From: an uncultured Bacteroidales bacterium
GTDB taxonomy: Bacteria > Bacteroidota > Bacteroidia > Bacteroidales > CAZSJF01
Reading direction: 5' to 3'
NCBI GenBank assembly: GCA_964606705.1
Contig: CAZSJF010000003.1
Coordinates: 1 to 35,314, forward strand
Length of the DNA: 35,314 nucleotides
The position numbers and the translations under genes were made by a program. The notes below the pieces were generated by a model. It made no database searches. It was not told the DNA's origin and worked only from the letters and a program-made list of their open reading frames with translations. Below, in pieces: positions 3,813-18,959 of the stretch; position 1 is the first letter of the stretch; every line of letters begins with the position of its first letter.

Positions 3813-3853
3813 TTACTTTTGCAACAATGTAAAGAATAAATTATAAAGAAAAT

Positions 3854-4726: not shown

Positions 4727-4753
4727 AAGGTTTTTTGATTATTTTTACATGAT

Positions 4754-5620
4754 ATGAAAAAATCGGACAATAGTAAATCAAATGATTTTAAGAACAGGCT
4801 GAAATCATATTCATCAGTAGCTGCGGGACTTGCAGCTTTCACCCCGGTGGCAAATGCACAGATCATTTATACAGACATAGACCCTGATGTCAATATCTCA
4901 AACTCTTCTTATTTACTGGATTTGAATAATGACGGCACTGAAGATTTTCGAATTACTCAGAATGGCAGTAGTTCTTATTCAATGGATGGGGTTGCTGTAT
5001 ATGCTTACCAAAGCAATGCAAATAAATTGCTGATTGATAAAATCCAGTTTGGTTATTATAGTTATAGTGTAAATGCGGCTCTTGCATTGAATCAGGGAGA
5101 TACAATTGATAATAATCAACCTATGTGGGGTGCATTCGGTGGTTTGAATGCTCATGGCATATATAATTCAGCACCTTTGGATATTGGCCATTGGAAAAGT
5201 CTTTCAGATAAGTATATTGGATTTAAATTTGTAATTGATTCTGATCTGCATTATGGCTGGGCAAGATTAAATGTTACCCCTGATGCTACTAGTGCAACGA
5301 TTAAAGATTATGCATATAACAGTATTCCCGATGAAATGATAATGGCAGGACAGACTGGCAGTGCCGGAATAAACAAATATTCTGCCGGCAATGAGTTTAA
5401 TGTATACTCTTTTAATAAAAAATTGGTGATTGATTGTGGGAACAGTGATATAAAAAATACTGTTGTAAGTATATTCAATACCACAGGACAGCAGATAAAA
5501 CAAATGCAGATTAACAGCATGAGAACAGAAGTAGATATGAGTGATATTCCATCTGGCATTTATTTTGTCAGATTAATGAATGAAAACGGAATTTTTTCCA
5601 GGAGAATCAGTATTAATTAG
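4754..5620 (+). CDS. T9SS C-terminal-sorting-domain cargo protein, tandem paralog 3 of 3
   Basis: 288-aa ORF collinear with the two preceding genes. The C-terminus is SIFNTTGQQI..GIYFVRLMNENGIFSRRISIN. Only 27 nt separate it from the previous gene. Confidence 0.75.
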   Translation: MKKSDNSKSNDFKNRLKSYSSVAAGLAAFTPVANAQIIYTDIDPDVNISNSSYLLDLNNDGTEDFRITQNGSSSYSMDGVAVYAYQSNANKLLIDKIQFGYYSYSVNAALALNQGDTIDNNQPMWGAFGGLNAHGIYNSAPLDIGHWKSLSDKYIGFKFVIDSDLHYGWARLNVTPDATSATIKDYAYNSIPDEMIMAGQTGSAGINKYSAGNEFNVYSFNKKLVIDCGNSDIKNTVVSIFNTTGQQIKQMQINSMRTEVDMSDIPSGIYFVRLMNENGIFSRRISIN

Positions 5621-5654: not shown

Positions 5655-6653
5655 TCATTCAATCAGGACTTTTTCAATCTTTATATTATCTCTGTCAGTA
5701 AATTTTAAGAAATACATTCCTTTGGGATAACTGCTTATATCTATCTGCCTTTGATTATTTCCTGTTAACCTTTCCCTGAAAATGATTTTTCCTTCGGTGT
5801 TGAATATTTCCAGATCAGCATCTTTGTCTGTAAATACATTAATTATACCGCCAGATGGATTCGGGTATATGGAAAAATACGTGTCTTTATTATCAGGAAT
5901 ACTTGTACAGGTGTCAACAGTAACAACAATATTATCACTGTCTGTATGGCCCATAAGTTGAACAGTTACTGAATATGTTGTAGTTGCAGTAGGTGTTTCT
6001 GTTATCTGATATGTAGTAGCTCCTGTATTCCATGAATAACTGCAGCCTACGTCCCCTGCCGTCAAAATAATTGAATTCCCTGAACATATTGTAGTGTCAG
6101 GACCCAGATCAGCGTCATTATTAATAACAGTTACAAAAACAAAATCATCATCCGAGCAGCCTTTATTGTCTGTTGCTGTTACTGTATAGATTGCAGATGT
6201 AGATGGTTTTACCATTATTGCTGAATTTGATTCTCCTGTATTCCACAGATAAGTGCCGTCAACACCGGCACCACTTGCCATTAAGAATGCATTACATGAA
6301 GGATTTTTACAAATTGTCTGTTCGCTTCCTGCCTCGGCAGTTGGTAAAGAATTAACGGTAACAACAACTTCATCACTTGCTGTGCAAGAAGATTCAGTGG
6401 TTATGGTTACCGAATAAGTTGTAGTGATTGTGGGGCTGACAGTTATTGTCGGTGTTGTTGCGGATGTACTCCATTGGTAATACAACACAAATGCCCCGCC
6501 ATTTGCGATTAATGTTATTGTGTCGTTAAGGCAGACAGATGTATCCGGACCTAGATTTACCTGGCATAGTGCCAGTGGTTCCTGAGACTGTCCCCATGTA
6601 ATAAAATTACACGTCAGGAAGATAATACATAGCAATAATTTAAGTTTTTTCAT
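5655..6653 (-). CDS. T9SS cargo protein with three Cys-bracketed Ig-like repeats
   Basis: 332-aa ORF with signal peptide MKKLKLLLCIIFLTCNFITWGQ. It carries three ~75-aa repeats of the form C..(I/L)(T/M)ASGG..Y.W(S/N)TG....I.V.P..TTTY.VTV....C...D.V.VTV. The CTD is IYPNPSGGIINVF..LEIFNTEGKII..GMYFLKFTD. Confidence 0.7.
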   Translation of the reverse strand: MKKLKLLLCIIFLTCNFITWGQSQEPLALCQVNLGPDTSVCLNDTITLIANGGAFVLYYQWSTSATTPTITVSPTITTTYSVTITTESSCTASDEVVVTVNSLPTAEAGSEQTICKNPSCNAFLMASGAGVDGTYLWNTGESNSAIMVKPSTSAIYTVTATDNKGCSDDDFVFVTVINNDADLGPDTTICSGNSIILTAGDVGCSYSWNTGATTYQITETPTATTTYSVTVQLMGHTDSDNIVVTVDTCTSIPDNKDTYFSIYPNPSGGIINVFTDKDADLEIFNTEGKIIFRERLTGNNQRQIDISSYPKGMYFLKFTDRDNIKIEKVLIE

Positions 6654-6869: not shown

Positions 6870-8240
6870 TTAATGGTATAATCTTACGAATTTCCTGTTA
6901 TACATTAAATTTTCTTCAGGTGATGTAATATTTAAAGAGTAAACACCTTGTGGTAAAGTATTCACAGGTAATATTATGGTGTGCTTTCCTGAAGGGAAAT
7001 CGGATATTTGTTCGCTTATTTTTTGCCCGACAATATCATAAACAATAAATGCCAGTTTTTCCGGTTTCAGCAGGTTGATATCTATATGCAGTTCCTGATC
7101 CACCGGGTTTGGATAAAGATCACTTATAATGGAACTTTTTAAATGGTTGTCATTTATAGAATTGTTAGGGAGCATGATGATGTCAGCATCATATTTGTTG
7201 CTTTGAAGGTATATAGACGTTGCATTACCCCAGTCCGGAACATTTCCGAAAAAGGTAGGAGAGTATTCACCGTAATGAATGGAGTTTTCAGTTAATATTA
7301 CTTTAACTTTATAATAAGCTTCCATTATATTGAAGAAATAAAAATATCCTAAAGTGTCAATAATAAAACTGTCAAGAGGCTCAGTTTCTATATCACTCCT
7401 GTAAAGGTATGCTTTCCCGTAGTCAATAGGGAACAGGTCGGCGAATACCTGTCCGCCTAAAAGAATCCAGCAGTTATATGTGGTTGCAACGACTATCTCA
7501 TCATAATCGGTGCAGCCATTTATGTCTGTTACTGTTACGGTATAGGTAGTTGTAACATCAGGATATACATTAATATACTCGGTTGTATCTTGTGTATTCC
7601 ATAAGTATGTTTCGCCGCCTGAAGCGGTGAGGGTAATTGTATCCCAGTTGCAGATTGTTTGGTCTAATCCTGCATTAGCAGTTGGCGGTGGATATACATA
7701 TACGAAGATAGTATCTTCATCTGAATTTAAACATATATTTTCTGTTACCGTTACAATAAATGATGTATCTGTTGCCGGTGATACGGTGATGGATGCCGTC
7801 GTATCCCCTGTGCTCCATGAATATTCTGTTCCTCCTGAGGCTGTAAGTATTATGTCCATGCTTTTGCATGTTGACGTGTCACCCCCTGCATCGGCTGTTG
7901 GCATGGGATTTACGTATATAATGATTATATCACTGGCAGTACAACTATTATTATCTGTAATTGTAACTGTATATGTTGTCGTTACTGTTGGATATACAGA
8001 TATAGTATTAGAATCTAATATTGTTGTATCAGTACTCCATTTATAATCTATTGGATATTGTGTTGAATCTGTAACAGCATTCAGAAAAACTTCCTGTCCC
8101 GGGCAAATGGGGTCACCAAGGGAATCGTAAGATGAAAATATAGTAACGTTGCACTGTGACCATGCTATGCCTGCATTTAACATGAAAAATATAAATAGCA
8201 GTAATTTGATTGTCCGGTTTCTTTTGAGAGCTTCTTTCAT
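6870..8240 (-). CDS. T9SS cargo protein with three Cys-bracketed Ig-like repeats plus a beta-sandwich domain
   Basis: 456-aa ORF with a signal peptide (LLLFIFFMLNAGIAWSQ). It has three repeats of the same family as 5655..6653, for example ILTASGGTEYSWSTGDTTASITVSP and TLTASGGETYLWNTQDTTEYINVYPDVTTTYTVTVTDINGC. The CTD is LYPNPVDQELHIDI..VYDIVGQKI..GVYSLNIT. Confidence 0.7.
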   Translation of the reverse strand: MKEALKRNRTIKLLLFIFFMLNAGIAWSQCNVTIFSSYDSLGDPICPGQEVFLNAVTDSTQYPIDYKWSTDTTILDSNTISVYPTVTTTYTVTITDNNSCTASDIIIIYVNPMPTADAGGDTSTCKSMDIILTASGGTEYSWSTGDTTASITVSPATDTSFIVTVTENICLNSDEDTIFVYVYPPPTANAGLDQTICNWDTITLTASGGETYLWNTQDTTEYINVYPDVTTTYTVTVTDINGCTDYDEIVVATTYNCWILLGGQVFADLFPIDYGKAYLYRSDIETEPLDSFIIDTLGYFYFFNIMEAYYKVKVILTENSIHYGEYSPTFFGNVPDWGNATSIYLQSNKYDADIIMLPNNSINDNHLKSSIISDLYPNPVDQELHIDINLLKPEKLAFIVYDIVGQKISEQISDFPSGKHTIILPVNTLPQGVYSLNITSPEENLMYNRKFVRLYH

Positions 8241-8314: not shown

Positions 8315-8349
8315 AAAAAGGACAGCATGGTAAAATCCACACTGTCCTT
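8315..8349 (-). terminator. putative intrinsic terminator downstream of 8375..9754
   Basis: On the minus strand the sequence reads AAGGACAG-(16-nt loop)-CTGTCCTT followed by TTTAG. The stem is 8318-8325 paired with 8342-8349. The sequence is identical to the copy at 10057..10095, but the U-tract here is shorter. Confidence 0.45.
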
Positions 8350-8374
8350 ACGAACTAAGTTAAATTAATGGAAA

Positions 8375-9754
8375 CTATTTTACAAACTTCTTGATGATAG
8401 ATTCGTTGCCAAATGTAGCTCTTACAAAATATATTCCACTTGGCAATTCACTGATATTCATTTTTACAGTGTTTTGTCCGCTGTTAACAGAGTATATTTC
8501 ACTGAATACAACCTGACCGAATAAATTCAGTATCTGTACTTCTGAATTTGAACTTCTTTCGGTTGTTATATCAATATTCAGATTATCTGTTGCAGGGTTC
8601 GGATATACATTGATAAACCTTTCGGCTTGTTCAATATATTTGATGCCGGTTGTAATATCTTCCTGCTTGACATATATAAGTCCTCCAAATACATAGTTAG
8701 ATTTATTACAATTGATTGTTAATGTAACGTAATATGCTCCTGCAATGTCTATATGATAAGTTGCAAAAAGATATGTATATGTAATGGTGTCAGTTTCCTG
8801 CATTATTAACCATACAACTGTAATATCGTTTGTCTGGTTTGTTATTACCTGCTGGATGAAAAATGTGTCAATAGCACCTTCCAGACATGTATCTATAGTA
8901 TAATTCAGCGTATCATTCAGGATTATGTTGCCGACAAAAATGTTTTCACAGTAGGTGTCATAACATGTGTCCATTCCGGATGCTATGCTAAGGCATACTT
9001 CATATACCCCGTCATTGCTGAAGAAATGAATCGGATTCTCTTCGTTCGAGTTACTGCCGTCACCGAAGTCCCAGGAATAAAAATTATCAAGACTATCTGA
9101 ATAAAATGATGTATTATAGAATTGATATTCATAATTACCTATAATATCATAAATAAATGAAGCTTCACAATTAAATAAAGAATCTTCATTTTCATAAACA
9201 CTAATCCATGTACAATAGGAGTCGCTGCATAATGTATCTCCAAGGTCAATGTTGTAAACATTCAGGCATACATTATAAAATCCATTTGTGTTATAAATAT
9301 GAACAGGATTTGTTTCTGAAGAATTGCTGCCATCACCGAAATCCCATGAATATGTGTTCTGGCTTCCATTCTGCGGGCCATAAAATGTGTATTCCGAAAT
9401 CCCTGTGTGGTTATAATCGAAATTGGCATGACAACATACATTTTCAACAGTAACAACAACATCATCAGAGGCGGTGGAACCACCATCAGTTGCTGTAACT
9501 GTATATGTAGTGGTTGTTGTTGGAGTTGCTAGAATATTATATGTGGTTTCTCCGGTATTCCATTGATATTGTAATGGCGCCATTGAGTCTGTTACCTGCA
9601 GCCAAGTTGACTCACCATTACAAATAGTCTGGTCTTCTCCTGCATTAACAGTACATTGTGACCATGTAAATCCGGTATTAAACATTAAAAATGTAATACC
9701 TGCAATCATAAATCTGACGGCTTTTTTCAATTTGAGGGTTTTTTTTGTTTTCAT
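8375..9754 (-). CDS. T9SS cargo protein: one Ig-like repeat, two PKD domains, unknown domain, CTD (short paralog)
   Basis: 459-aa ORF with the signal sequence MKTKKTLKLKK..FLMFNTGFTWSQ. The PKD hallmark occurs twice (YSWDFGDGSNSSETNPVHIY; YSWDFGDGSNSNEENPIHFF). The CTD is VYPNPATDNLNIDI..VQILNLFGQVV..GIYFVRATFGNESIIKKFVK. Confidence 0.8.
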   Translation of the reverse strand: MKTKKTLKLKKAVRFMIAGITFLMFNTGFTWSQCTVNAGEDQTICNGESTWLQVTDSMAPLQYQWNTGETTYNILATPTTTTTYTVTATDGGSTASDDVVVTVENVCCHANFDYNHTGISEYTFYGPQNGSQNTYSWDFGDGSNSSETNPVHIYNTNGFYNVCLNVYNIDLGDTLCSDSYCTWISVYENEDSLFNCEASFIYDIIGNYEYQFYNTSFYSDSLDNFYSWDFGDGSNSNEENPIHFFSNDGVYEVCLSIASGMDTCYDTYCENIFVGNIILNDTLNYTIDTCLEGAIDTFFIQQVITNQTNDITVVWLIMQETDTITYTYLFATYHIDIAGAYYVTLTINCNKSNYVFGGLIYVKQEDITTGIKYIEQAERFINVYPNPATDNLNIDITTERSSNSEVQILNLFGQVVFSEIYSVNSGQNTVKMNISELPSGIYFVRATFGNESIIKKFVK

Positions 9755-9810
9755 AATTTTAATTTTTTTTAGTTAAACAATTTTTTAATTACTTTTTCTC
9801 TTTTATTAAT

Positions 9811-9838
9811 AAGACAAGATGAAAATGAAAATGGTTGC
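9811..9838 (-). promoter_or_regulatory. ECF-type promoter motif, site A (proximal promoter of 8375..9754)
   Basis: The minus strand reads ATGCAACCATTTTCATTTTCATCTTGTCTTATT. The motif ends about 58 nt upstream of the ATG at 9754. It is the same motif that lies upstream of the ECF sigma gene (site D). Confidence 0.55.
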
Positions 9839-9850
9839 ATGGGAAAAAAA

Positions 9851-9930
9851 TAGCTGGTATTAAATATGGCCATAATATCTGCAATCATTAATTTTATTGA
9901 CTTTTGCCTTTTTAATTCTTTTGTTTTCAT
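9851..9930 (-). pseudogene. 5' remnant (signal-peptide stub) of a third PKD-cargo paralog
   Basis: The minus strand from the ATG at 9930 encodes MKTKELKRQKSIKLMIADIMAIFNTSYFF. This aligns with the signal peptides MKTKKTLRLKKSIKLMIAGVALIFNTGLTW and MKTKKTLKLKKAVRFMIAGITFLMFNTGFTW of the two full genes. Homology then breaks and the sequence runs directly into promoter site A. The stub retains its own 5' leader (AGTTGAACAATA, compare AGTTAAACAAT) and its own promoter site B. Confidence 0.6.
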
Positions 9931-9977
9931 GATTTGAAAAATTTTAGTTGAACAATAATTTATCTGTTCTTTTCAAT

Positions 9978-10005
9978 AAGACAAGATCAAAATGAAAATG
10001 GTTGC
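9978..10005 (-). promoter_or_regulatory. ECF-type promoter motif, site B (upstream of the gene stub, distal tandem promoter for 8375..9754)
   Basis: The minus strand reads ATGCAACCATTTTCATTTTGATCTTGTCTTATT. This differs from site A at one position. Confidence 0.5.
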
Positions 10006-10056
10006 ATGGGATTTATTTTTATTGATTATTTTTCGTGCAATTGTTAAATTTTTTAT

Positions 10057-10095
10057 AAAAAAAAAGGACAGCATGGTAAAATCCACACTGTCCTT
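10057..10095 (-). terminator. intrinsic terminator downstream of 10121..12142
   Basis: On the minus strand the sequence reads AAGGACAG-(16-nt loop)-CTGTCCTT followed by a run of T (the A-run 10057-10065 on the plus strand). The stem is 10064-10071 paired with 10088-10095. Confidence 0.6.
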
Positions 10096-10120
10096 ACGAA
10101 CTAAGTTAAATTAATGGAAA

Positions 10121-12142
10121 CTATTTTACAAACTTCTTGATGATAGATTCGTTGCCAAATGTAGCTCTTACAAAATATATTCCACTTGGCAATTCACTGA
10201 TATTCATTTTTACAGTGTTTTGTCCGCTGTTGATAGTATATATTTCGCTGTATACAACCTGTCCGAATGAATTCAGTATCTGTACTTCCGGATTTGAGCT
10301 TTTTTCGGTTGTTATATCAATATTCAGGTTATCTGTAGCAGGATTCGGATATACACTAACATATTTTTCAGTTTGTTTTATATACTTAATTCCGGTTGTA
10401 ATGTCTTCCTGATCAATAGAAATAAGTTTTCCGCATACATAAGTATATTTAGCACAGTTGATGGTTAATGTAATATAGTATACCCCTGCACTGTCTATGT
10501 GATATTCTGCAAAAAGATAAGTGATACTGTCATTTTCCTGCACTATTGCCCAAATAATTATTACTTCAGTTGTCTGGTTTGTTATTACCTGTTGGACGAA
10601 GAATGTGTCAATAGCATCTTCCACACATGTATCCAGAGAATAATTTATTGAATCATTTGGAATTATATTTCCGACAAAGATATTTTCACAGTAATAATCA
10701 GTGCATGAATCTATTCCGGATACAATACCAAGACATACTTCATATACTCCGTCATTAGCGAAAACATGAACAGGATTTTCCTCGTTTGAGTTACTGCCAT
10801 CGCCAAAGTCCCAGAAATATTCATTGTTAAGACTATCTGAATAAAATGATGTATTATAGAACTGATATTCATAATTACCTATAATGTCATAAGCAAATGA
10901 AGCTTCACAATCATTAAATAAAGAATCTTCGAAAGCGCCAATCCATATACAATAGGAATCGCTGCATAATGTATCTCCGAGATCAATATTGTAAACATTC
11001 AGGCATACATTATAAAATCCGTCTGTATTATAAGTATGGATGGGGCTCAATTCCGCAGAATTGCCTCCGTCTCCGAAATTCCATGAATATGTATTCTGAT
11101 TCCCTGTCTGAGGGCCGCTAAAGGTGAATTCCAGTATTCCGCTGTGCTGATACCCGAAATTAGCATGACAACATATGTTTTCAACAGTAATTACTATTTC
11201 ATCAGAAGCAGTGGAACAGCCATCTGTAGCTGTGACTGTATATGTAGTAGTTGTTACTGGAGTTGCGAAAATAGCATAGGTAGTTGCTCCGGTATTCCAT
11301 ATGAATTGTAACTGTGACATGGAGTCTCCTACCTGGAGCCATGTTGATTCGCCATTACAGATAGTCATGTCTTCTCCTGCATTAACTATTATCTGATCTG
11401 CCAGTATTACAGTAACTTCATCTTTATCAGTACAGCCGTTGCCGCTGGTTACTGTTACTGTATATACCGTTGTCTCAGTAGGATTAACAGTGATGGAAGA
11501 CGTGGTCTGTGCTGTACTCCATAAATATGTGGTACCGCCGCTTGCTGTTAATGTTGCTGTTTCGCTGACACATATATATTGATCTGCTCCTGCATTAGCT
11601 GTTACACCAGGGAGTATAGTTACAACAACCGCGTCATCATCAATACAGCCGTTTGCTTCTGTAACTGTTACATAATAAGTTGTTGTAACATTAGGGCTGA
11701 CCACTATTGACTGAGAAATTTGCATGGAGTCACCCCACTGATAAGTTATTCCTCCAGTAGCTGTCAGTGTTACGCTGTAACCGCCGCATGTTGTTAAATC
11801 TGCCCCTGCATTTGCTGTGGGTAATGCGCTGACAATAACAACAACTTCATCTGTTGCACTGCAGGCACTCAGGTCTGTAAATGTAACTGTATATGTTGTT
11901 GTTACATTCGGATTTACCAGTATATCCTGAGTTGTTTGGGCAGTACTCCAAAGGTAAGTTCCTGTGGCAGAATCTCCCGGTAGGGCTGTTAAAATAAAAG
12001 CATTGCCCTGACATATACTAATGTCCTGCCCGACATCTACGCTGCACTGAGACCACGTTAACCCAGTGTTAAAAATAAGCGCAACACCGGCAATCATTAA
12101 CTTAATTGATTTTTTCAATCTGAGTGTTTTTTTTGTTTTCAT
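10121..12142 (-). CDS. T9SS cargo protein: four Ig-like repeats, two PKD domains, unknown domain, CTD (long paralog)
   Basis: The ORF track gives 10121..12169 from a TTG start. The ATG at 12142 (MKTKKTLRLKK..) matches the start of the paralog. There are four Cys-bracketed repeats, for example TLTATGGITYQWGD and TLTASGGTTYLWSTAQTTSSITVNPTETTVYTVTVTSGNGC. The PKD motifs are YSWNFGDGGNSAELSPIHTY and YFWDFGDGSNSNEENPVHVF. The CTD is almost identical to that of 8375..9754. Confidence 0.8.
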   Translation of the reverse strand: MKTKKTLRLKKSIKLMIAGVALIFNTGLTWSQCSVDVGQDISICQGNAFILTALPGDSATGTYLWSTAQTTQDILVNPNVTTTYTVTFTDLSACSATDEVVVIVSALPTANAGADLTTCGGYSVTLTATGGITYQWGDSMQISQSIVVSPNVTTTYYVTVTEANGCIDDDAVVVTILPGVTANAGADQYICVSETATLTASGGTTYLWSTAQTTSSITVNPTETTVYTVTVTSGNGCTDKDEVTVILADQIIVNAGEDMTICNGESTWLQVGDSMSQLQFIWNTGATTYAIFATPVTTTTYTVTATDGCSTASDEIVITVENICCHANFGYQHSGILEFTFSGPQTGNQNTYSWNFGDGGNSAELSPIHTYNTDGFYNVCLNVYNIDLGDTLCSDSYCIWIGAFEDSLFNDCEASFAYDIIGNYEYQFYNTSFYSDSLNNEYFWDFGDGSNSNEENPVHVFANDGVYEVCLGIVSGIDSCTDYYCENIFVGNIIPNDSINYSLDTCVEDAIDTFFVQQVITNQTTEVIIIWAIVQENDSITYLFAEYHIDSAGVYYITLTINCAKYTYVCGKLISIDQEDITTGIKYIKQTEKYVSVYPNPATDNLNIDITTEKSSNPEVQILNSFGQVVYSEIYTINSGQNTVKMNISELPSGIYFVRATFGNESIIKKFVK

Positions 12143-12189
12143 AATTTTCTCCTTTTTTTGGTTAAACAATAGATTTTTATTTTAATGGT

Positions 12190-12217
12190 AAGACAAGGTT
12201 AAGATGAAAAAGGTTGT
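12190..12217 (-). promoter_or_regulatory. ECF-type promoter motif, site C (upstream of 10121..12142)
   Basis: The minus strand reads ATACAACCTTTTTCATCTTAACCTTGTCTTACC, about 48 nt upstream of the ATG at 12142. The -35-like element is ACAACC rather than GCAACC. Confidence 0.45.
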
Positions 12218-12276
12218 ATGAAATATTTTTTTTGTTCATATAATTCTGTTTTAATTCCTACACATGGAATTTTGTA

Positions 12277-13746
12277 TCAGAATGTCAGGTAAACACTAGC
12301 CCTGACACCCAATGAATAAGGCTTTTTACTGATATTGCTGTCTGAATAAAAGGATTTGAGGTAATACTTAAATGTAGGCTCTAATGCGAAACTTATAATA
12401 GGATTTATCTGATATCCCAATTCTGCCGAAGCCATCAATTGCCAGTTGGTCTTTACCAGATTTGAATTTTCCTTTTCAACATTTAATATCAGCCATTCGG
12501 CATTTCCTGTAATTTCGGGTTCTGCTTTATCAAGTAAGATATTCAGGTTAAAACCTGCCCTTGCCGTGAGGAAAAACCTGCTGCCAAAATATTTTTTGTA
12601 ACCGGCAGTAAAAGGAATACTCAGATAAGTGAAACTGTTTTCTGTAACCTCATTGGTTGTGTGTTCAACAGAATCGTAAACATTTTTAACAGAACCGTAG
12701 TAATTAGTTGTTGAATCCCAAGGGTAAGAAACGGAATCGACATCAAAATATGAGCCGATCAGGTCGTTTGACATATATTTTATAGTGTTGTTAATATTTT
12801 CCTTTGATCTGAATAATCCGATGCCTAACTGGAAAACAAATTTTGAGTAAGTATAATTTGCAGTGATTCCAAGTATATTTCCTGCAGTTGTTTTGTTAGT
12901 GTCAGAAAGGTTATAAATGAAATCTTTTGTGTAATGGAGGCCATAATAAAGTTTTGAACGGCTTATATTTGCTGATTCATTCTGTGTAGTGTTAGTTGTT
13001 ATATTCCCGGCAGTGTTGTCTTGTGGTTTCTGGTTGATATCCGGTATTGTGATGTTTGTATCAGCAGTAGTAATATTTTCAACAGGTGTATTATCTGTTT
13101 GCTGATTATTTTCCGGGGTAATGGGATTATTTTCAGTAACTTTTGATTCAGGAATGAATTCGTTTACTTTTTCCGGTTCATTTGTCTTGTTTTCTGTTTT
13201 TTCAGCAAAGAAGATATTTTTATTTACTTTATTCTTTGTGGTGGTTTTTTCAGATTTGTCTGCAGTATTTTGTTCTTTTATTTTAGTTACAGCAGTAATA
13301 TTTTTAACATTATTATCTGTGGACTTTTCTTTATTGTTATTTATAATAATGTTTGATTTTTTAACAGGATTTATATTATTGGTGTTATTATTTCCCGTAT
13401 TGTAATTTGTTATTTCATTTTTGCTTTCCGTTTTAGCAGCAACAGGTACGTTTCCGGTATTATCTTTTGAGTCTTTTATTTTATTAATATGAGTAGCAGA
13501 AGTTGTTTTAGGGGTGATTGATTTTTTATTCAGGTTATTATATATGAAAAATGCACCTGTAAATACTGAAACGACAGCAATTGTTGTAAAGTACGATAAA
13601 TTATTGGAAAAAAAGCCTCCTATCCTGGGAGTTCCGCTGTCTTTAATTGCGGAGCGTATATTTGCCCAGGCATTATCCGACGGCTGCAGATTCAGGTTAT
13701 CTATAGCCTCGTTGTACTTTTCTATCAATCGGTCTTTTTTACTCAT
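12277..13746 (-). CDS. putative anti-sigma factor / trans-envelope protein: short cytoplasmic N-terminus, one TM helix, long N/T/K-rich linker, C-terminal OMP-like beta-barrel domain
   Basis: 489-aa ORF whose ATG overlaps the stop of the ECF sigma gene by 4 nt (13743-13746). The TM helix is FTTIAVVSVFTGAFFIY (aa ~52-69). A low-complexity segment spans aa ~75-262. The C-terminal ~225 aa have alternating amphipathic strands and end in a terminal aromatic residue (..SLGVRASVYLTF), like outer-membrane beta-barrels. There is no HxxxCxxC zinc anti-sigma motif. Confidence 0.5.
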   Translation of the reverse strand: MSKKDRLIEKYNEAIDNLNLQPSDNAWANIRSAIKDSGTPRIGGFFSNNLSYFTTIAVVSVFTGAFFIYNNLNKKSITPKTTSATHINKIKDSKDNTGNVPVAAKTESKNEITNYNTGNNNTNNINPVKKSNIIINNNKEKSTDNNVKNITAVTKIKEQNTADKSEKTTTKNKVNKNIFFAEKTENKTNEPEKVNEFIPESKVTENNPITPENNQQTDNTPVENITTADTNITIPDINQKPQDNTAGNITTNTTQNESANISRSKLYYGLHYTKDFIYNLSDTNKTTAGNILGITANYTYSKFVFQLGIGLFRSKENINNTIKYMSNDLIGSYFDVDSVSYPWDSTTNYYGSVKNVYDSVEHTTNEVTENSFTYLSIPFTAGYKKYFGSRFFLTARAGFNLNILLDKAEPEITGNAEWLILNVEKENSNLVKTNWQLMASAELGYQINPIISFALEPTFKYYLKSFYSDSNISKKPYSLGVRASVYLTF

Positions 13747-14318
13747 ATAATTACTTCATTTAATTTTAAAATTTTGTCCTGCAAGATCTTTCTTGCTCTT
13801 GAAAATTGTGATTTTGAAGTATTTTCTGATATATTGAGTTCTTCTCCTATTTCTTTATGAGTGTAGCCCATTGAATAAAGGTTAAAAACCATCCTGTATC
13901 CTTCCGGGAGTTCATCTACTAATTTTATTATTTCGTTATGTGATAATTTGTCGACAGCATCTTCGTCGTTTATTTCATATTCCCTTATATTGCCTTCATA
14001 TTCGCCTGTACTATCAATCTCTTCACTCTGGGAATATTTCTTGTTTTTATGATAAAAATTGATAGCTGTACGTGTCATAATACGTCTTACCCACCCCTCA
14101 AGCGAGCCTTCGAACTTGTAAGTACCCAGGTTGTTAAAGACCTGAATAAAACCTTCCTGTAAAACATCTTCAGCTTCCATTTTGTTTTTTGTAAAACGAT
14201 AACATACATTTAACATCTTTGAGGCAAATTGCTTGTACAACTGCTCCTGGCACTTTAAATCCCCTTTCAAACACCCTGTCACGAGGTGCTTTTCTTTATT
14301 TAGCAAAAAGTCAAGCAT
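13743..14318 (-). CDS. RNA polymerase ECF-type (group IV) sigma-70 factor
   Basis: 191-aa ORF. The region 2 signature is EDVLQEGFIQVFNNLGTYKFEGSLEGWVRRIMTRTAINFY. The region 4 HTH is LPEGYRMVFNLYSMGYTHKEIGEELNISENTSKSQFSRARKIL. There is no region 1 or 3. Confidence 0.9.
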   Translation of the reverse strand: MLDFLLNKEKHLVTGCLKGDLKCQEQLYKQFASKMLNVCYRFTKNKMEAEDVLQEGFIQVFNNLGTYKFEGSLEGWVRRIMTRTAINFYHKNKKYSQSEEIDSTGEYEGNIREYEINDEDAVDKLSHNEIIKLVDELPEGYRMVFNLYSMGYTHKEIGEELNISENTSKSQFSRARKILQDKILKLNEVII

Positions 14319-14337
14319 AAATGCCTTCTAAATATTA

Positions 14338-14365
14338 AGACAAGATAAACAAAAAAATGGTTGCA
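14338..14365 (-). promoter_or_regulatory. ECF-type promoter motif, site D (autoregulatory promoter of the sigma/anti-sigma operon)
   Basis: The minus strand reads ATGCAACCATTTTTTTGTTTATCTTGTCTTAAT and ends about 20 nt upstream of the sigma ATG (14318). Confidence 0.55.
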
Positions 14366-14397
14366 TCAAAGTTAAAATAATTTTTTTATTCCCTGAC

Positions 14398-14424
14398 GCA
14401 ACCTTTTTTGACCCCGGGCATCTA
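14398..14424 (+). promoter_or_regulatory. ECF-type promoter motif, site E (upstream of 14465..15952, divergent from site D)
   Basis: The plus strand reads ACGCAACCTTTTTTGACCCCGGGCATCTATTAA. The spacing is GCAACC-N17-TCTA, and the motif ends about 41 nt upstream of the ATG at 14465. Confidence 0.5.
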
Positions 14425-14464
14425 TTAAATAAAACCGGATTATTAACCTTAAATTTTTTAAATC

Positions 14465-15952
14465 ATGAAAACAAAACAACTTTTATTGACAGCAGTGATA
14501 ATGTGTGCTGTATTCAGCATAAAATCACAGACTTATTATCCTTTCATCAGTGATAATAAAATATGGTCAATTGTTAACGGCAATGGGTGGTATGGTTATG
14601 CAACAGATTTTACCAAACTTGACGGGGATACTGTTATAGATGGTAAAGACTATAAATTTATATATCATTGTTATGAACCGTCAATGATGAACTGGGACAA
14701 AGATGAGTACTCTTTTATCAGAGAAGATATAGATAACAAACGTGTTTATACATATAATGACAGCAGTGAAGTACTTTTATATGATTTTTCATTGATGCCG
14801 GGAGATTCATTTTATACAGGAACTCCTGATTATGAGACAGGTGGCGATTCTTTATATGCATTTGTCAAAACTGTCGATTCAGTTCTGATACATGGTGTAT
14901 ACAGAAAAAGAATAATTTTTGATACATTATTCAATGATGGTGTTTTTAATGAAGTATGGATTGAAGGTTTGGGAAGTTTAACAGCTCCCTTTGCACCGTT
15001 TGTTAATCTTATTAACTATTCTATTGTTAATGGTCCGTGGTCATACCTGATATGTGTAAAAGAAAATGATAATATGATATATCAGAATTCTAATCAAGGA
15101 AGTTGTTATGTCAATACTAATATTTTTGCTTACCATCCTTTTATCAATGTTTTTGATGAAAAAATATGGGTTGTAGGGATTAGCTCATGGTGGAATTCTA
15201 CCGTTTACTATAAACTTGAAGGAGATACAATAATAAATAGTAAGAATTATAAATTTATTTACACTACACTTGACTCAACATTTACAAACTGGACTAAAAA
15301 TGAAGAAGGTTATATAAGAGAAGATGTTAATACCAGACGTGTTTATGAATACTGTAATGATGGATATGAAAGGCTCTTATATGATTTTTCCTTAATGCAG
15401 GGTGATTCATTTTATAATGGATGTAAAGATGATCAGACAGGAGATTCTCTTTATACAACTGTTGATAGTATTGATTATGTCTGGATAAATGGGGCAAATT
15501 GTAAAATAATAAACGGCAATATTATTGAAAGTATAGGAAACACAGGCTATCCGTTTTTTGTAGCTGATGGATATGGCTATTGTATGATGATTTTCGACTG
15601 GTATCCATCTTTATTATGTGTAAAAGAAAATGGCAATACGATATATCAGAATCCTGATTATGGTGTTTGTTATTTTGGCAATACATCCGTTAAGGAAATC
15701 AAAGACGATGAAAATACAGTTAGAATATATCCAAACCCTTCATCAACTTCTGCAACAATTACCATATCGGATGAACAAAACAGGTATAATGAAATAAAAG
15801 TTCTTGACATACAGGGTCAGGTTGTGAAAAGGGATATTATTAATGACAATACATATATCCTTAACACATCTGATATGATTCCGGGTATGTATTTCATTTT
15901 TATAAATGACAATAAAGATAATGTACTGAAAAGTAAGATTATTGTGGAATAA
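14465..15952 (+). CDS. T9SS cargo protein with an internal tandem duplication of a ~190-aa module
   Basis: 495-aa ORF with signal peptide MKTKQLLLTAVIMCAVFSIKSQ. Module 1 (aa ~24-216) and module 2 (aa ~223-404) share Y(Y/H)PFI..KIW, KL(D/E)GDT(V/I)I(D/N).K(D/N)YKFIY, IRED(I/V)..+RVY.Y, LLYDFSLM.GDSFY.G, L(I/L)CVKEN.N.IYQN and CY(V/F). The CTD is RIYPNPSSTSATITI..IKVLDIQGQVV..GMYFIFIND. Confidence 0.75.
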   Translation: MKTKQLLLTAVIMCAVFSIKSQTYYPFISDNKIWSIVNGNGWYGYATDFTKLDGDTVIDGKDYKFIYHCYEPSMMNWDKDEYSFIREDIDNKRVYTYNDSSEVLLYDFSLMPGDSFYTGTPDYETGGDSLYAFVKTVDSVLIHGVYRKRIIFDTLFNDGVFNEVWIEGLGSLTAPFAPFVNLINYSIVNGPWSYLICVKENDNMIYQNSNQGSCYVNTNIFAYHPFINVFDEKIWVVGISSWWNSTVYYKLEGDTIINSKNYKFIYTTLDSTFTNWTKNEEGYIREDVNTRRVYEYCNDGYERLLYDFSLMQGDSFYNGCKDDQTGDSLYTTVDSIDYVWINGANCKIINGNIIESIGNTGYPFFVADGYGYCMMIFDWYPSLLCVKENGNTIYQNPDYGVCYFGNTSVKEIKDDENTVRIYPNPSSTSATITISDEQNRYNEIKVLDIQGQVVKRDIINDNTYILNTSDMIPGMYFIFINDNKDNVLKSKIIVE

Positions 15953-15993
15953 CAAATAATAAATTATTAATCATTTCATTTAAAGAAAAGGAT

Positions 15994-16344
15994 ATGAAAA
16001 AAATTTTGTTTTTGGCAATTATTACAGTTATAACCATTGTGAGTTGCAAAAAGGATAATGTTGACAACAGGTCAACACTTAAAAAAATGTACAGGGAATA
16101 TAAAAACGGAGAGATTGATGAATGCAAATACAACGGTGAGGTTGTTTATACTGCATGCCTTAATGCTTATGACGCAGGGACCATAGTATATGACGAAGAC
16201 GGTAATAAAATCGGAACGTGCAATTATGCATGGGGGCCTGTTGAATCTATTTGCGCGCAATTACAGGATTATGAAGTGATTTATCGCTGCAAAAATCACA
16301 TTTCAGGGCAACCTCCTGTTGACAAGTACAAACTGGGTAATTGA
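15994..16344 (+). CDS. small Cys-rich lipoprotein, function unknown
   Basis: 116-aa ORF with a lipobox (ITIVSC/KKD) and five further Cys residues. It lies 41 nt downstream of 14465..15952 with no promoter motif or hairpin between them, so it is probably co-transcribed. Confidence 0.55.
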   Translation: MKKILFLAIITVITIVSCKKDNVDNRSTLKKMYREYKNGEIDECKYNGEVVYTACLNAYDAGTIVYDEDGNKIGTCNYAWGPVESICAQLQDYEVIYRCKNHISGQPPVDKYKLGN

Positions 16345-16384
16345 CATAAAAAACGAAATTATTGTTGAAAAATTAATATTTAAC

Positions 16385-16411
16385 GCAACCTTTTTTAATT
16401 CAAATCATCTA
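16385..16411 (+). promoter_or_regulatory. ECF-type promoter motif, site F (upstream of the serpin gene)
   Basis: The plus strand reads ACGCAACCTTTTTTAATTCAAATCATCTACTAA. The spacing is GCAACC-N17-TCTA, and the motif ends about 40 nt upstream of the ATG at 16451. Confidence 0.5.
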
Positions 16412-16450
16412 CTAATTAAAAACGAGTTATTAATTTAAAAACTAAAGATT

Positions 16451-17695
16451 ATGAAAACAATAAAAATCATATGGAGTGTTATCATAGGAATAGCATTTCT
16501 GGCAGTTTCCTGCGAAAAAGTGCCTTCACCCGGTACAGGTAAAAACATAACCGATATAGGCAATATTAAAAAATCATTGATTAATTCAACAAATGCCTTC
16601 GGGTTTGAATTTTTCAAAAAAGTAAATGACAGTGAAAGTGGTAATGATACCAATATCCTGATTTCTCCGGTGAGCGCATCAATAGCTCTTGCAATGGCTT
16701 ATAATGGTGCTGACGGCACTACAAAAGAGGCCATGGGGCAGACTCTTAAACTGAACGGCCTTAGTGTTGATGAAATAAACAATTCATATAAAGCACTGAT
16801 GGAGTTATTGTCGGCCTCAGGTCCGGATATTACAACAAATATTGCCAATTCAATATGGTATAGAAATACTTTTTATATTATTCCTGATTTCTTAAATGTA
16901 AATACTGATTATTATAATGCTGAGGTAACGCCTCTTGATTTTAACGATCCTGACAGCAAGGACATAATAAATAACTGGGTTGCACAAAAAACAAATGATA
17001 AAATAACAGAAATTATTGATGGCATTCCTCCTGATGCAGTTATGTATCTTATTAATGCTGTTTATTTCAAAGGTATTTGGAAATATGAATTTGATGAGGA
17101 TAAAACGTTTGAAAGCGATTTTTTTATGGAAAACGGAAATACGGCTCCTGTATCAATGATGATCCAGAAAGGGATTTATAATTATTATTCCAATGATGTG
17201 TTCAGTGCCCTGGAATTACCATACGGAAATGAAAAATACAGCATGATTATATTACTCCCGAATGAAAATAACAAAGTCAATGATGTGATCAATTATCTGG
17301 ATAATGACAGCTGGGATTTATGTATGGAAAATTTTCATGCAATAACAGACAGCATGTATATATATATACCTAAATTCAAATTCAGATATGAAAAAACACT
17401 GAACGACATTTTAACAGATATGGGTATGGGTATTGCTTTTAGTTCTGACGCTGACTTTTCAAAAATAAATCCGGTAGCAGGCTTATTTATTTCAAATGTT
17501 AAACAAAAAACTTATATAGAAGTTAATGAGCAGGGGACAGAAGCTGCTGCGGTTACTTCTATAGAATTTGGTACTACCAGTGCTTTTGAAAATATATTCT
17601 CTGTGAACAGGCCATTTGTTGCCGCAATAGTTGAAAAAAGCACAGGCACAATTCTTTTTATAGGTAAGATCAACAAGCCTGTTATTTGTGGATAG
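16451..17695 (+). CDS. serpin-family protease inhibitor, predicted lipoprotein
   Basis: 414-aa ORF with a lipobox (IAFLAVSC/EK). The serpin core motifs are NILISPVSASIALAMAYNGADGTTKEAM, INNWVAQKTNDKITEII and YLINAVYFKGIWKYEFD. The reactive-centre-loop hinge is EQGTEAAAVT, and the C-terminal signature is FSVNRPFVAAIVEKSTGTILFIGKINKP. Confidence 0.9.
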   Translation: MKTIKIIWSVIIGIAFLAVSCEKVPSPGTGKNITDIGNIKKSLINSTNAFGFEFFKKVNDSESGNDTNILISPVSASIALAMAYNGADGTTKEAMGQTLKLNGLSVDEINNSYKALMELLSASGPDITTNIANSIWYRNTFYIIPDFLNVNTDYYNAEVTPLDFNDPDSKDIINNWVAQKTNDKITEIIDGIPPDAVMYLINAVYFKGIWKYEFDEDKTFESDFFMENGNTAPVSMMIQKGIYNYYSNDVFSALELPYGNEKYSMIILLPNENNKVNDVINYLDNDSWDLCMENFHAITDSMYIYIPKFKFRYEKTLNDILTDMGMGIAFSSDADFSKINPVAGLFISNVKQKTYIEVNEQGTEAAAVTSIEFGTTSAFENIFSVNRPFVAAIVEKSTGTILFIGKINKPVICG

Positions 17696-17721: not shown

Positions 17722-18720
17722 TTATTGTCCTTTTATCTTTTCTTTAAGTGCGATAACTTTTTCCCTGGCATTATTAAAAAATCTGAAGCGGTGTTTCTCT
17801 GAGACACCGCTTATTAATGTTGATTTCTTTATAAATCCTTTCAGCCACAGTTCGGTTTCATCACAAAAAGCGGCATTTGTGGTAAACATGCTGTTAAAAG
17901 TGTAATTACGCAGGAAAACGGTTTTTATGCCGTCTGTTTTCACAAGGATACAGTTGTTTCCTATATCTACATCACTGTTATATACGTAATAATTATTTTC
18001 ATATCCTGCAACGGAAGCTTTTGTGGAATGCTCTGTCTCCTGTTGTATGTTTTCAAGTAATATAATCAGTGCATCACACAGATTAACTGCATCATCCTTT
18101 GTCGTAAATAATCCTGATTCATAATAGTAGTCAATCTGTTTTAAGGTGCTGATGATTGTAAGGTCGCTCCATATCTCAATGCTTGGTATTTTGGAATAGA
18201 CCTCAAATATCTGTTTGCCTTTTTCTATCAGGTCTTTATCTACCAGAGAAGGGGTGTATTTTTTATCTTCAAGTTCCGGCACATTAAGAGTGGACTTCAT
18301 CCAGTAAAACATTTTGAAAATGCCTAATTCCTGGAATTTAAACTGGTGAAAAATGGGAATATCCGCCGCCGCATAAATAATTTCTTTTTCTTTTGCGCTT
18401 AATATTCTTTTCAATGCATTGAGCAGATCCGTAATATAATCATTAAAACTTTCTGTGTTGCTGAGAAACCGATTGTAACTGAAGTTTACAACACCTGTCT
18501 CACTTGTACAAAATGAATCAAAAGAAATTTTATAGCGCTCGCATATTTTAATAATCTCGTCAATTGTAAACGAAGTTTCTCCTCTTATACGCCTGTATGC
18601 ACTGTCATTGCTTACACCAAGCAGATCGGCCAGTTCGTTGACAAGAGAATAGTTTTTGGGAAGAGCTGTTTTTATACGGTCGATGAATTTTTGCTGATTG
18701 CTTGTATTTTCCTTTTGCAT
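17722..18720 (-). CDS. helix-turn-helix transcriptional regulator (BetR-like N-terminal HTH plus ~270-aa uncharacterised C-terminal domain)
   Basis: The ORF is open to 18870, but I place the start at the ATG at 18720 (MQKENTSNQQKFIDRIKTALPKNYSLVNELADLLGVSNDSAYRRIRGETSFTIDEIIKICERYKISFDSF). The HTH then sits at the N-terminus. The extra 50 codons overlap palindromic and direct-repeat DNA that looks like an operator region. Confidence 0.6.
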   Translation of the reverse strand: MQKENTSNQQKFIDRIKTALPKNYSLVNELADLLGVSNDSAYRRIRGETSFTIDEIIKICERYKISFDSFCTSETGVVNFSYNRFLSNTESFNDYITDLLNALKRILSAKEKEIIYAAADIPIFHQFKFQELGIFKMFYWMKSTLNVPELEDKKYTPSLVDKDLIEKGKQIFEVYSKIPSIEIWSDLTIISTLKQIDYYYESGLFTTKDDAVNLCDALIILLENIQQETEHSTKASVAGYENNYYVYNSDVDIGNNCILVKTDGIKTVFLRNYTFNSMFTTNAAFCDETELWLKGFIKKSTLISGVSEKHRFRFFNNAREKVIALKEKIKGQ

Positions 18721-18786
18721 AAAAATATGGGGTAAAGCCTTAAATGACAGAGTATTTTTATGCAATATACAATAATAATTCCGGAT

Positions 18787-18807
18787 AATTTGCAAAAAAT
18801 GCAAATT
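18787..18807. promoter_or_regulatory. candidate operator: perfect palindrome AATTTGCA-N5-TGCAAATT
   Basis: The perfect inverted repeat is 18787-18794 with 18800-18807. The 11-mer AAAATGCAAAT (18796-18806) recurs exactly 50 bp away at 18846-18856. The site lies in the divergent region between the HTH regulator (17722..18720) and the membrane protein gene (18960..19424). Confidence 0.4.
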
Positions 18808-18959
18808 TCTTTTCTGTTCGTAATTCATCCTTTCAATTTTTTCAGAAAATGCAAATCCAAAAACTGCCATAGTGGTTATCCGTTTTGAATGGCCTGAAGG
18901 CAGTAGTATCTTTACATCATCAAACCGAAAAAATGTTTAACAATTAAAAACAAAAAATT

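Follow-up and report, generated by a model that had tools for sequence, protein, structure and literature searches.

An ECF21 sigma factor, its Dma-type anti-sigma factor and a probable local regulon of type IX secretion cargo and a miropin-like serpin in an uncultured Bacteroidales bacterium

The DNA discussed here, referred to as the window, is a stretch of 35,314 nt from contig CAZSJF010000003.1 of an uncultured Bacteroidales bacterium (GenBank assembly GCA_964606705.1). It carries genes for an extracytoplasmic function (ECF) sigma factor and a putative anti-sigma factor, which lie among genes for type IX secretion system (T9SS) cargo proteins and close to a serpin gene, and the same bipartite motif is found at six sites, A to F, in front of these genes. 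In our view the locus probably comprises a cell-envelope signalling module of the ECF21 (Das/Dma) type and the local regulon that this module controls. The regulatory genes and the six sites are as follows.

13743..14318, minus strand: ECF sigma factor, group ECF21 (Das-like), 191 aa, recognised by Pfam, TIGR02937 and BLASTP.
12277..13746, minus strand: predicted Dma-type anti-sigma factor, 489 aa, recognised by family alignment, by hhalign to Dma1 and by an N-terminal hidden Markov model (HMM).
9803..9842, minus strand: promoter A, -35 element at 9838->9833, -10 element at 9815->9810, N18 spacer, 28.4 bits, the top site of the window; precedes cargo gene A.
9970..10009, minus strand: promoter B, -35 element at 10005->10000, -10 element at 9982->9977, N18 spacer, 27.0 bits; a tandem duplicate of promoter A.
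12182..12221, minus strand: promoter C, -35 element ACAACC at 12217->12212, -10 element GTCTTA at 12194->12189, N18 spacer, 25.0 bits; precedes the cargo gene at 10121-12142.
14329..14368, minus strand: promoter D, -35 element GCAACC at 14364->14359, -10 element GTCTTA at 14341->14336, N18 spacer, 26.9 bits; precedes the sigma/anti-sigma operon, with the ATG at 14318.
14394..14433, plus strand: promoter E, -35 element GCAACC at 14398-14403, -10 element ATCTAT at 14420-14425, N17 spacer, 24.6 bits; precedes cargo gene E.
16381..16420, plus strand: promoter F, -35 element at 16385-16390, -10 element ATCTAC at 16407-16412, N17 spacer, 23.7 bits; precedes the serpin gene.

All six sites read exactly as quoted in the preliminary description of this DNA, in sequence and in position, and the gap of 14 nt that it gave between AAGACAAG and GGTTG(C/T) in sites A-D is correct. 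Its spacing of 17-18 nt between the two boxes is N18 in A-D and N17 in E and F. A repeat search puts A-D in one four-copy family (D4) and finds E and F as a 58-nt pair with 74% identity (D14). The pattern CAACC-N18-TCTW has four matches in the window, at A-D only, where 0.57 are expected and none of 100 shuffles reaches four, and CAACC-N17-TCTW matches E, F and one coding site. We also made a weight matrix of 40 nt in which the window itself had no part, its 35 training sites all lying upstream of sigma orthologues from other genomes. Applied to both strands of the window with both spacings, it gives the six sites 23.7-28.4 bits and the next best site 13.3 bits, with nothing else reaching 14, and a site of at least 23 bits was present in only one of 200 first-order Markov shuffles of the window. 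Each of the six is intergenic and co-oriented with the next gene, the end of the -10 element being 18-56 nt before the start codon (18 nt ahead of the sigma ATG for site D). As the matrix from other genomes recovers all six sites, the observation is confirmed, and the sites are real and far above chance.

ECF (group IV) proteins of the sigma-70 family have only the sigma-2 and sigma-4 domains and are about 170-220 aa in length. The window sigma factor is of this kind, with Pfam Sigma70_r2 (PF04542) and r4_2 (PF08281) as the only domains in its 191 aa, and it scores 100.5 bits against TIGR02937 (cut-off 42.9). We place it in group ECF21, a family described by Staron 2009 (as cited in PMC10927553), on the basis of BLASTP to reference members, using as reference library the supplementary tables of Rhodius et al. 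2013 (PMC3817407). It has 35% identity to ECF21_1280, which is BT_4720/Das1 (E=6e-41, 124 bits), and 33% identity to ECF21_2825 (E=1e-37, 115 bits). The ECF03 or “RpoE-like Bacteroidetes” group was rejected as an assignment, as ECF03_1198 gives only E=1e-14 and 55 bits against 6e-41 for ECF21. No solved ECF protein scores above 60 bits with the window sigma. There are thousands of sigma homologues at 50-58% identity, all in metagenome-assembled genomes (MAGs) of Bacteroidota, and the named homologues are likewise all from Bacteroidota, the sole exception being in L076, a MAG labelled Janthinobacterium.

The promoter points to the same group. The ECF21 promoter Pecf21_up4014 (...AGGCAACC CTTTTTCATCCGGCTTCG TCTATATC...) has the form GGCAACC-N18-TCTA (Rhodius 2013, PMC3817407, Supplementary Table 1), and AGGCAACC-N18-TCTATATC has the -35 core, the T-rich stretch after it, the spacing and the TCT of the -10 element as we find them in the window. 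It scores 18.2-18.6 bits with the matrix of sigma sites. It is a synthetic-biology part taken upstream of a sigma gene, and unlike the window sites it had no regulon derived from it. The comparison of protein and motif with the ECF groups that had been proposed earlier is thus in favour of ECF21 on both counts, the nearest references being of that group and Pecf21_up4014 sharing the elements and spacing, and we take the GCAACC-N17/18-TCT motif to be the known ECF21 group promoter.

The next gene on the same strand, whose start overlaps the sigma stop by 4 nt, had been put forward as that for the anti-sigma factor, and the N-terminal HMM, the presence of OMP_b-brl_2 in its family and the hhalign comparison with Dma1 all support this and make it of Dma type. 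Dma proteins are anti-sigma factors that span both membranes (Pardue 2024, PMC10927553). They have an N-terminal segment that binds sigma, followed by a transmembrane helix and a long disordered tether, and end in a beta-barrel (10.1101/2025.09.27.678952). The window protein has at its N-terminus a sigma-binding-like segment of ~45 aa followed by one hydrophobic helix (about residues 52-70), then at residues ~75-255 an N/T/K-rich, low-complexity tether that cannot be aligned between homologues, and at its C-terminus an outer-membrane beta-barrel-like domain that ends ...YLTF, with a C-terminal aromatic residue. The 17 homologues from related loci align with it only at the N-terminal motif and helix and over the last ~230 residues (alignment A3), and the family alignment has a conserved D..L....EP...VW..I motif and a hydrophobic stretch. 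Pfam OMP_b-brl_2 (PF13568) is matched by 11 of the 17 family members, with a best value of 4.4e-9, and BLASTP of the window protein to the matching members gives 1e-35 to 1e-9. In hhalign, alignment A3 against Dma1/BT_4721 gives a probability of 93.7% and E=1.9e-7, at the C-terminus. The N-terminal HMM matches the gene after sigma in 45 loci. Judged by these comparisons the pair is a Das/Dma (ECF21) system, and its anti-sigma factor is predicted to have the four-part Dma architecture.

In relatives among the Sphingobacteriia the parts are found in two genes, as an anti-sigma protein of ~255 aa (N-terminal motif, helix and tether) and, adjacent to it, a barrel of ~270 aa with its own signal peptide. 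Loci of this Sphingobacteriia type are L009, L012, L014, L018, L025, L030, L032, L043, L044, L051, L066, L071, L074 and L079. The barrel HMM matches three of the separate barrel genes, weakly (5e-7 to 7e-5), and we regard the two genes as a probable split version of the fused Dma. At ~6.1 kb in L028, an open reading frame (ORF) of 347 aa is matched by the sigma query as well as by the N-terminal HMM of the anti-sigma factor, and may be either a fused sigma/anti-sigma protein like Dma3 of Bacteroides thetaiotaomicron or an artefact of ORF calling. In the cell-surface signalling of FecA/FecR/FecI, an outer-membrane barrel and an inner-membrane anti-sigma factor bring about release of an ECF sigma factor. 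The window system resembles it in the predicted signalling from barrel to anti-sigma factor, and in the Sphingobacteriia relatives barrel and anti-sigma are separate as well, but the window has no TonB-dependent transducer or FecR domain, and its barrel is of the OMP_b-brl_2 type with 8-10 strands and fused to the anti-sigma factor.

For comparison we used 80 genomic loci with sigma orthologues, which have 43-57% identity to the window sigma. By eye, many of them have (A/G)TGCAACC(A/T)TT...(C/G)(A/G)TCT(T/A) shortly before the sigma start codon, and in 26 of 65 loci the 150 nt in front of sigma contain CAAC[CT]-N18-TCT, the spacer always being N18. With the matrix, 52 of the 58 hits of at least 18 bits in the 80 sigma loci are just upstream of the sigma orthologue and co-oriented with it. 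At the same threshold there are 99 hits in 1.39 Mb, of which 63 are before an ECF sigma gene, 22 before a serpin gene and 5 before a gene with a T9SS C-terminal domain (CTD); the remaining 9 have no assigned gene, and several of these are due to ORF miscalls. The conservation of the motif in front of the sigma genes of the family matches the prediction of autoregulation, and the suggestion that site D is an autoregulated ECF promoter has held up well, as its position and orientation are kept upstream of sigma orthologues across Bacteroidota.

Four of the loci (L001, L015, L020 and L050, at about 5.2-11.7 kb in each) have two ECF21 sigma/Dma pairs in tandem, with a PKD cargo gene between the first pair and the second. 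In these the promoter of the first pair is TGCAACC-N18-TGTCT and that of the second GGCAAC(C/T)-N17-(C/T)GTCT, and the two forms may represent diverging specificities within one locus.

The serpin gene behind promoter F is as follows.

16451..17695, plus strand: miropin-like serpin, 414 aa, with a lipoprotein signal (..LAVSC) and the hinge GTEAAAVT.

Inhibitory serpins have the full serpin fold and a hinge with small residues at P12-P9. The window protein has the full fold, with 378.8 bits over 365 aa against PF00079, and a hinge of the inhibitory type. Among solved structures its nearest relative is miropin of Tannerella forsythia (5NCS, E=3.7e-87), with which it shares the lipoprotein signal as well as the inhibitory-type hinge. 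Miropin is a surface lipoprotein thought to shield Tannerella against host and bacterial proteases (10.1101/2025.09.05.674453), and by analogy the window serpin would also be on the cell surface. The regulation of miropin is not described in the papers that we searched.

A further 80 metagenomic loci with serpin orthologues (42-56% identity) were scanned with the matrix, which had been trained without any serpin locus. There is a co-oriented site of at least 15 bits no more than 200 nt upstream of 23 of 77 serpin genes, compared with 4 of 925 other genes, and at 18 bits or more the figures are 19 of 77 and 1 of 925. A divergent ECF21 sigma gene is found 180-460 nt upstream in 19 of the 52 serpin loci that have at least 800 nt of upstream sequence, and in most of the serpin-linked loci that extend far enough the sigma gene is followed by a Dma gene. 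Several of these sigma/serpin pairs have back-to-back sites with starts 49-67 nt apart, and D and E in the window are 65 nt apart. The same serpin/sigma/Dma layout is present on a 6.2-Mb contig (L162) for which gene calls and Pfam labels had been made independently, with sites of 23.9 and 21.5 bits. In L068, which is one of the sigma loci, the divergent gene, with a 21.6-bit site 41 nt upstream, is a serpin closely related to that of the window. Serpin genes with a site but no ECF21 sigma gene nearby were found in L093, L127, L130, L148, L160 and L164, the last being the complete genome CP070687, where the serpin site has 22.8 bits. The window joins both conserved layouts, with the serpin side on the plus strand and the order sigma, Dma, cargo on the minus strand.

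Two other points on the serpin-linked loci may be noted. The gene after Dma in L087, L088, L107 and L120 is a conserved one for a lytic transglycosylase with an SLT domain (about 300-336 aa), and was dropped as a regulon member since no evidence for this was found in the serpin-linked loci. In L068 a gene for a NigD-like lipoprotein (3751-4416, minus strand; NigD_C, 28.7 bits) is directly downstream of the ECF21-controlled serpin gene. NigD1 and NigD2 are known Das1 targets in Bacteroides thetaiotaomicron, so the L068 gene links serpin-type systems to the published regulon. The serpin-linked sigma factors are no closer to Das1 than those of other clades, and we do not treat them as Das1 orthologues.

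The cargo genes and the smaller features around them are as follows.

8375..9754, minus strand: cargo gene A (T9SS), two PKD domains and Por_Secre_tail (PF18962, 67.1 bits); paralogue of C; repeats D1-D3.
10121..12142, minus strand: cargo gene C (T9SS), Ig_7/PKD and Por_Secre_tail (PF18962, 61.3 bits); directly after the anti-sigma gene.
14465..15952, plus strand: cargo gene E (T9SS), 495 aa, Por_Secre_tail (PF18962, 48.7 bits); repeats D5, D10, D11 and D17.
15994..16344, plus strand: small putative lipoprotein, 116 aa, signal ...IVSC, weak DUF6970 match; between cargo gene E and the serpin gene.
9769..9930, minus strand: stub ORF of 53 codons, remnant of the signal-peptide end of a paralogue (MKTKELKRQKSIKLMIADIMAIFNTS...); repeat D13; reads across promoter A.
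10095->10064 (after C) and 8349->8318 (after A), minus strand: intrinsic terminators, identical 32-nt hairpins with a 13-bp stem and a T-run.
14374->14367, minus strand: housekeeping -7 box TAACTTTG, directly 5' of the -35 element of promoter D; one occurrence.

T9SS cargo of type A is characterised by a C-terminal Por_Secre_tail sorting domain and an N-terminal signal peptide, and A, C and E have both, the PF18962 cut-off being 27 bits. For C the ATG at 12142 (MKTKKTLRLKK) is a likelier start than the TTG at 12169. As both C and A are closed by a terminator, we take each to be a transcription unit of its own, served by its own promoter. Their 3' ends are duplicated, with 94% identity over 300 nt (8315-8614 and 10061-10360) as against 78-79% for the rest of the two genes, which suggests recent gene conversion. 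Promoters B and A are 93% identical over 42 nt and 167 nt apart, with the first codons of the paralogue included in the duplicate, and probably act as tandem promoters for gene A. Cargo protein E has an internal tandem duplication of ~200 aa (14615-15673; period about 597-600 nt, 72-83% DNA identity) and no Pfam domain besides the CTD. Neither it nor the small lipoprotein has a homologue in 160 related loci. The lipoprotein gene is probably co-transcribed with cargo gene E. No terminator was detected between cargo gene E, the lipoprotein ORF and the serpin gene, so that transcripts of the serpin gene may arise at E as well as at F.

The window has nine T9SS cargo genes, including those at 5655-6653, 6870-8240 and 21533-23404, and the motif precedes only three of them. 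The other cargo genes had been described as lacking the motif, and indeed none has a site in the matrix scan. Among them are three tandem paralogues at 2937-5620 on the plus strand (291, 290 and 288 aa), which have near-identical C-termini and no ECF21 site. The cargo genes outside the regulon that start at 2937, 3854 and 6653 have the Bacteroidota housekeeping -7 box TAnnTTTG at 23-33 nt upstream, and a motif search of the window found none upstream of A, B, C, E or F. The one at 14374->14367 could give the sigma/anti-sigma operon a basal sigma-A promoter.

Cargo genes are also linked to the sigma factor elsewhere. At least 12 loci have the order sigma, Dma and a cargo gene with PKD, CarboxypepD_reg and Por_Secre_tail domains, homologous to the window genes and with gaps of 3-21 nt, and in L019 there is a separate 22.2-bit site before a T9SS cargo gene. 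The pairing of motif and gene was thus looked at in related genomes, and the links to cargo and to serpin both recur. It is in silico comparison of this kind that provides the sites, the family identity, the conservation upstream of sigma and serpin orthologues and the linkage to cargo operons in relatives.

We can suggest how such a module would work. By homology with Das1/Dma1 and EcfO/Reo (PMC10927553), the anti-sigma factor would be anchored in the inner membrane, with its tether across the periplasm and its barrel in the outer membrane, and its N-terminal cytoplasmic end would bind the sigma factor and sequester it at the inner membrane. Proteolysis of the anti-sigma factor, set off by a signal from outside the cell or at the outer membrane, would release sigma. 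At promoters that read GCAACC(A/T)TTT-N-(G/A)TCT(T/A), RNA polymerase loaded with sigma would then begin transcription ~6-8 nt downstream of the -10 element. Promoter D would drive its own operon and give positive feedback, promoter C and the tandem promoters B and A would drive the two PKD/Ig cargo paralogues, E the cargo gene and the small lipoprotein gene behind it, and F the gene for the miropin-like lipoprotein serpin. The transcription start sites are predicted ones, and that E and F are read by the local sigma and not by a paralogue is likewise our expectation.

Several observations weigh against this picture of one module with six promoters. The six sites are not independent, as B is a 167-nt tandem duplicate of A, C comes from a paralogue of A, and E and F share a duplicated promoter and leader, so that only about three lineages among them, namely A/B/C, D and E/F, are independent. 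Their density was measured over the 35-kb window, which is a whole MAG contig. A recognisable site is present for only ~30% of the serpin orthologues. In an E. coli host, ECF21_2825 raised the activity of Pecf21_up4014 only ~3-fold, and ECF21_1280/Das1 failed to induce it (0.5-fold) (PMC3817407 supplement). The window anti-sigma protein has no direct Pfam match, and a single-sequence AF2 model of its C-terminus was too poor to be used (pLDDT 32.7). Finally, every step beyond the existence and conservation of the sites is predicted from sequence. The duplications could be taken to mean that the sites are only leftovers of gene and promoter duplication without a shared regulatory function, with A, B and C preceding paralogues or a stub, B being a 167-nt tandem copy and E and F being alike at 74% over 58 nt. 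We think this very improbable. D stands before a gene unrelated to the others, the two boxes have been kept although the spacers have not, all six sites are recovered by a matrix whose source genomes are distant (sigma identity 43-57%), and dozens of unrelated contigs have the motif in front of their serpin and sigma orthologues. Another idea is that the motif serves as an operator, bound by a DNA-binding regulator that is not a sigma factor, for instance the HTH_3/BetR-like helix-turn-helix (HTH) protein encoded at 17722-18870, next to the serpin gene (Pfam). However the motif is asymmetric and bipartite, with a fixed spacing of 17/18 nt and strict co-orientation, as a promoter would be, it matches the promoter used experimentally for ECF21, and among the 160 related loci carrying the motif we found no homologue of the HTH gene, so that we give this idea hardly any credence.

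A division of the sites between two regulators deserves more attention. In this case the local sigma would read A-D, and a serpin-associated ECF21 paralogue elsewhere in the genome would mainly read E and F, their nearness to the local sigma gene being due to rearrangement or cross-talk. The sigma distances are 0.43-0.52 for cargo-linked and 0.53-0.58 for serpin-linked orthologues, and the window sigma clusters with the cargo-linked clade. The promoters of the two clades can be separated into sub-types, (A/G)TGCAACC...(T/C)GTCT for the cargo clade and ACGCAACC...CATCT for the serpin-linked clade, with 84% and 94% of sites correctly assigned in leave-one-out classification. By log-likelihood ratio A-D are +2 to +10 bits towards the cargo type (C +8.4), and E and F fall on the serpin side by -7.0 and -16.7 bits. 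As E and F are of the serpin-linked sub-type, a second ECF21 paralogue elsewhere could serve them, and several ECF21 systems in one organism are common in Bacteroidota, as in the loci with tandem pairs. Bacteroides thetaiotaomicron has Dma1-3 (PMC10927553), and dma3 is strongly induced in the dma1 and dma2 mutant transcriptomes (10.1101/2025.09.27.678952). Against this, there is no second ECF21 gene within the 35 kb, D and E are back-to-back as are the sites of sigma/serpin pairs elsewhere, and within single serpin-linked systems the promoters on the sigma side and the serpin side include both GTCT and ATCT and are not constant at the base 5' of GCAACC (L105, L151, L084 and L107). Since GTCT and ATCT are mixed within single systems, the sub-type positions are not strict specificity determinants. 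We therefore regard two regulators as possible but doubtful. The preliminary description had one dedicated sigma factor for the whole regulon, and this stands in so far as the links to cargo and to serpin both recur elsewhere, but is in question for E and F, whose sub-type goes with a different ECF21 clade. A single ECF21 module with its local regulon remains the reading that we favour.

With regard to systems already described, the nearest are Das1/Dma1 (BT_4720/BT_4721) and Das2/Dma2 of Bacteroides thetaiotaomicron, which like the window pair have an ECF21 sigma gene followed in the same operon by one for an anti-sigma factor of four parts (predicted ones in the window protein), and are like it restricted to Bacteroidota. 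The Das1 regulon comprises BT_1287, NigD1 and NigD2, and the phenotype is outer-membrane vesiculation (Pardue et al. 2024, PMC10927553); the predicted targets in the window are by contrast T9SS cargo and a serpin, and the words “promoter”, “serpin” and “T9SS” are absent from both Dma papers as searched (PMC10927553; 10.1101/2025.09.27.678952). EcfO/Reo of Bacteroides fragilis, as described in PMC10927553 citing Ndamukong 2013, consists of a sigma factor of the ECF21 family and a Dma1-orthologous anti-sigma factor that sequesters it via its N-terminus. By that description it is like the window system, although it is tied to oxidative-stress fitness. PorXY-SigP of Porphyromonas gingivalis (PMC4800418; SigP is of group ECF228, PMC7826278) resembles the window in having an ECF sigma factor tied to T9SS, as does the SM6 “CGT” motif of Flavobacterium psychrophilum (PMC9723704), a T9SS-linked ECF motif. 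Both control T9SS machinery genes, in contrast to the cargo genes that are the predicted targets in the window. SigP has no anti-sigma factor and is stabilised by PorX, whereas the window has a Dma anti-sigma factor and no PorX/PorY, and the -10 element of SM6 is CGT as against (G/A)TCT. We have therefore set both aside as models for the window, the SigP/ECF228 type by its description, since they differ in architecture and -10 element.

The ECF21 group, its promoter, the Dma architecture and ECF control of the T9SS machinery are all already known, and as the pair is read as a Das/Dma system and the motif as the known group promoter, this part of our account is not new. The conserved output set, T9SS cargo and a miropin-like serpin, appears to be undescribed. 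Our literature search, which had subscription-only papers outside its coverage, found no prior report of ECF21/Dma control of T9SS cargo or of a serpin, so the view that such wiring had not been described for T9SS cargo agrees with the searchable literature, with the proviso that the sigma/anti-sigma family and the promoter themselves had been. To our knowledge ECF21/Dma has so far one mapped regulon, of three genes in Bacteroides thetaiotaomicron, and we know of no signal for it. We also know of essentially no description of how bacterial serpins are controlled.

ECF21/Dma was recognised as a new class of trans-envelope regulator in 2024 (PMC10927553). The window and about 40 related loci indicate that outside gut Bacteroides it is repeatedly wired to a serpin and to T9SS PKD surface proteins, the serpin output often being a divergent gene pair with back-to-back promoters. 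This provides a rule at the sequence level for predicting ECF21 regulons in any Bacteroidota genome, and a first regulatory handle on bacterial serpins. The presence of a conserved protease inhibitor in the regulon suggests proteolytic surface damage as the signal in this branch. Taken further, the Das/Dma module would be a sensor of protease attack in a widespread uncultured branch of the Bacteroidota, in which clipping of the Dma barrel or tether by foreign proteases would release sigma and lead to production of serpin and replacement T9SS surface proteins. We put this forward as speculation and think it rather unlikely to be right in full, but that some Dma proteins sense proteolytic damage to the cell surface is a guess that can be tested, and if true it would give the Dma family its first named physiological signal.

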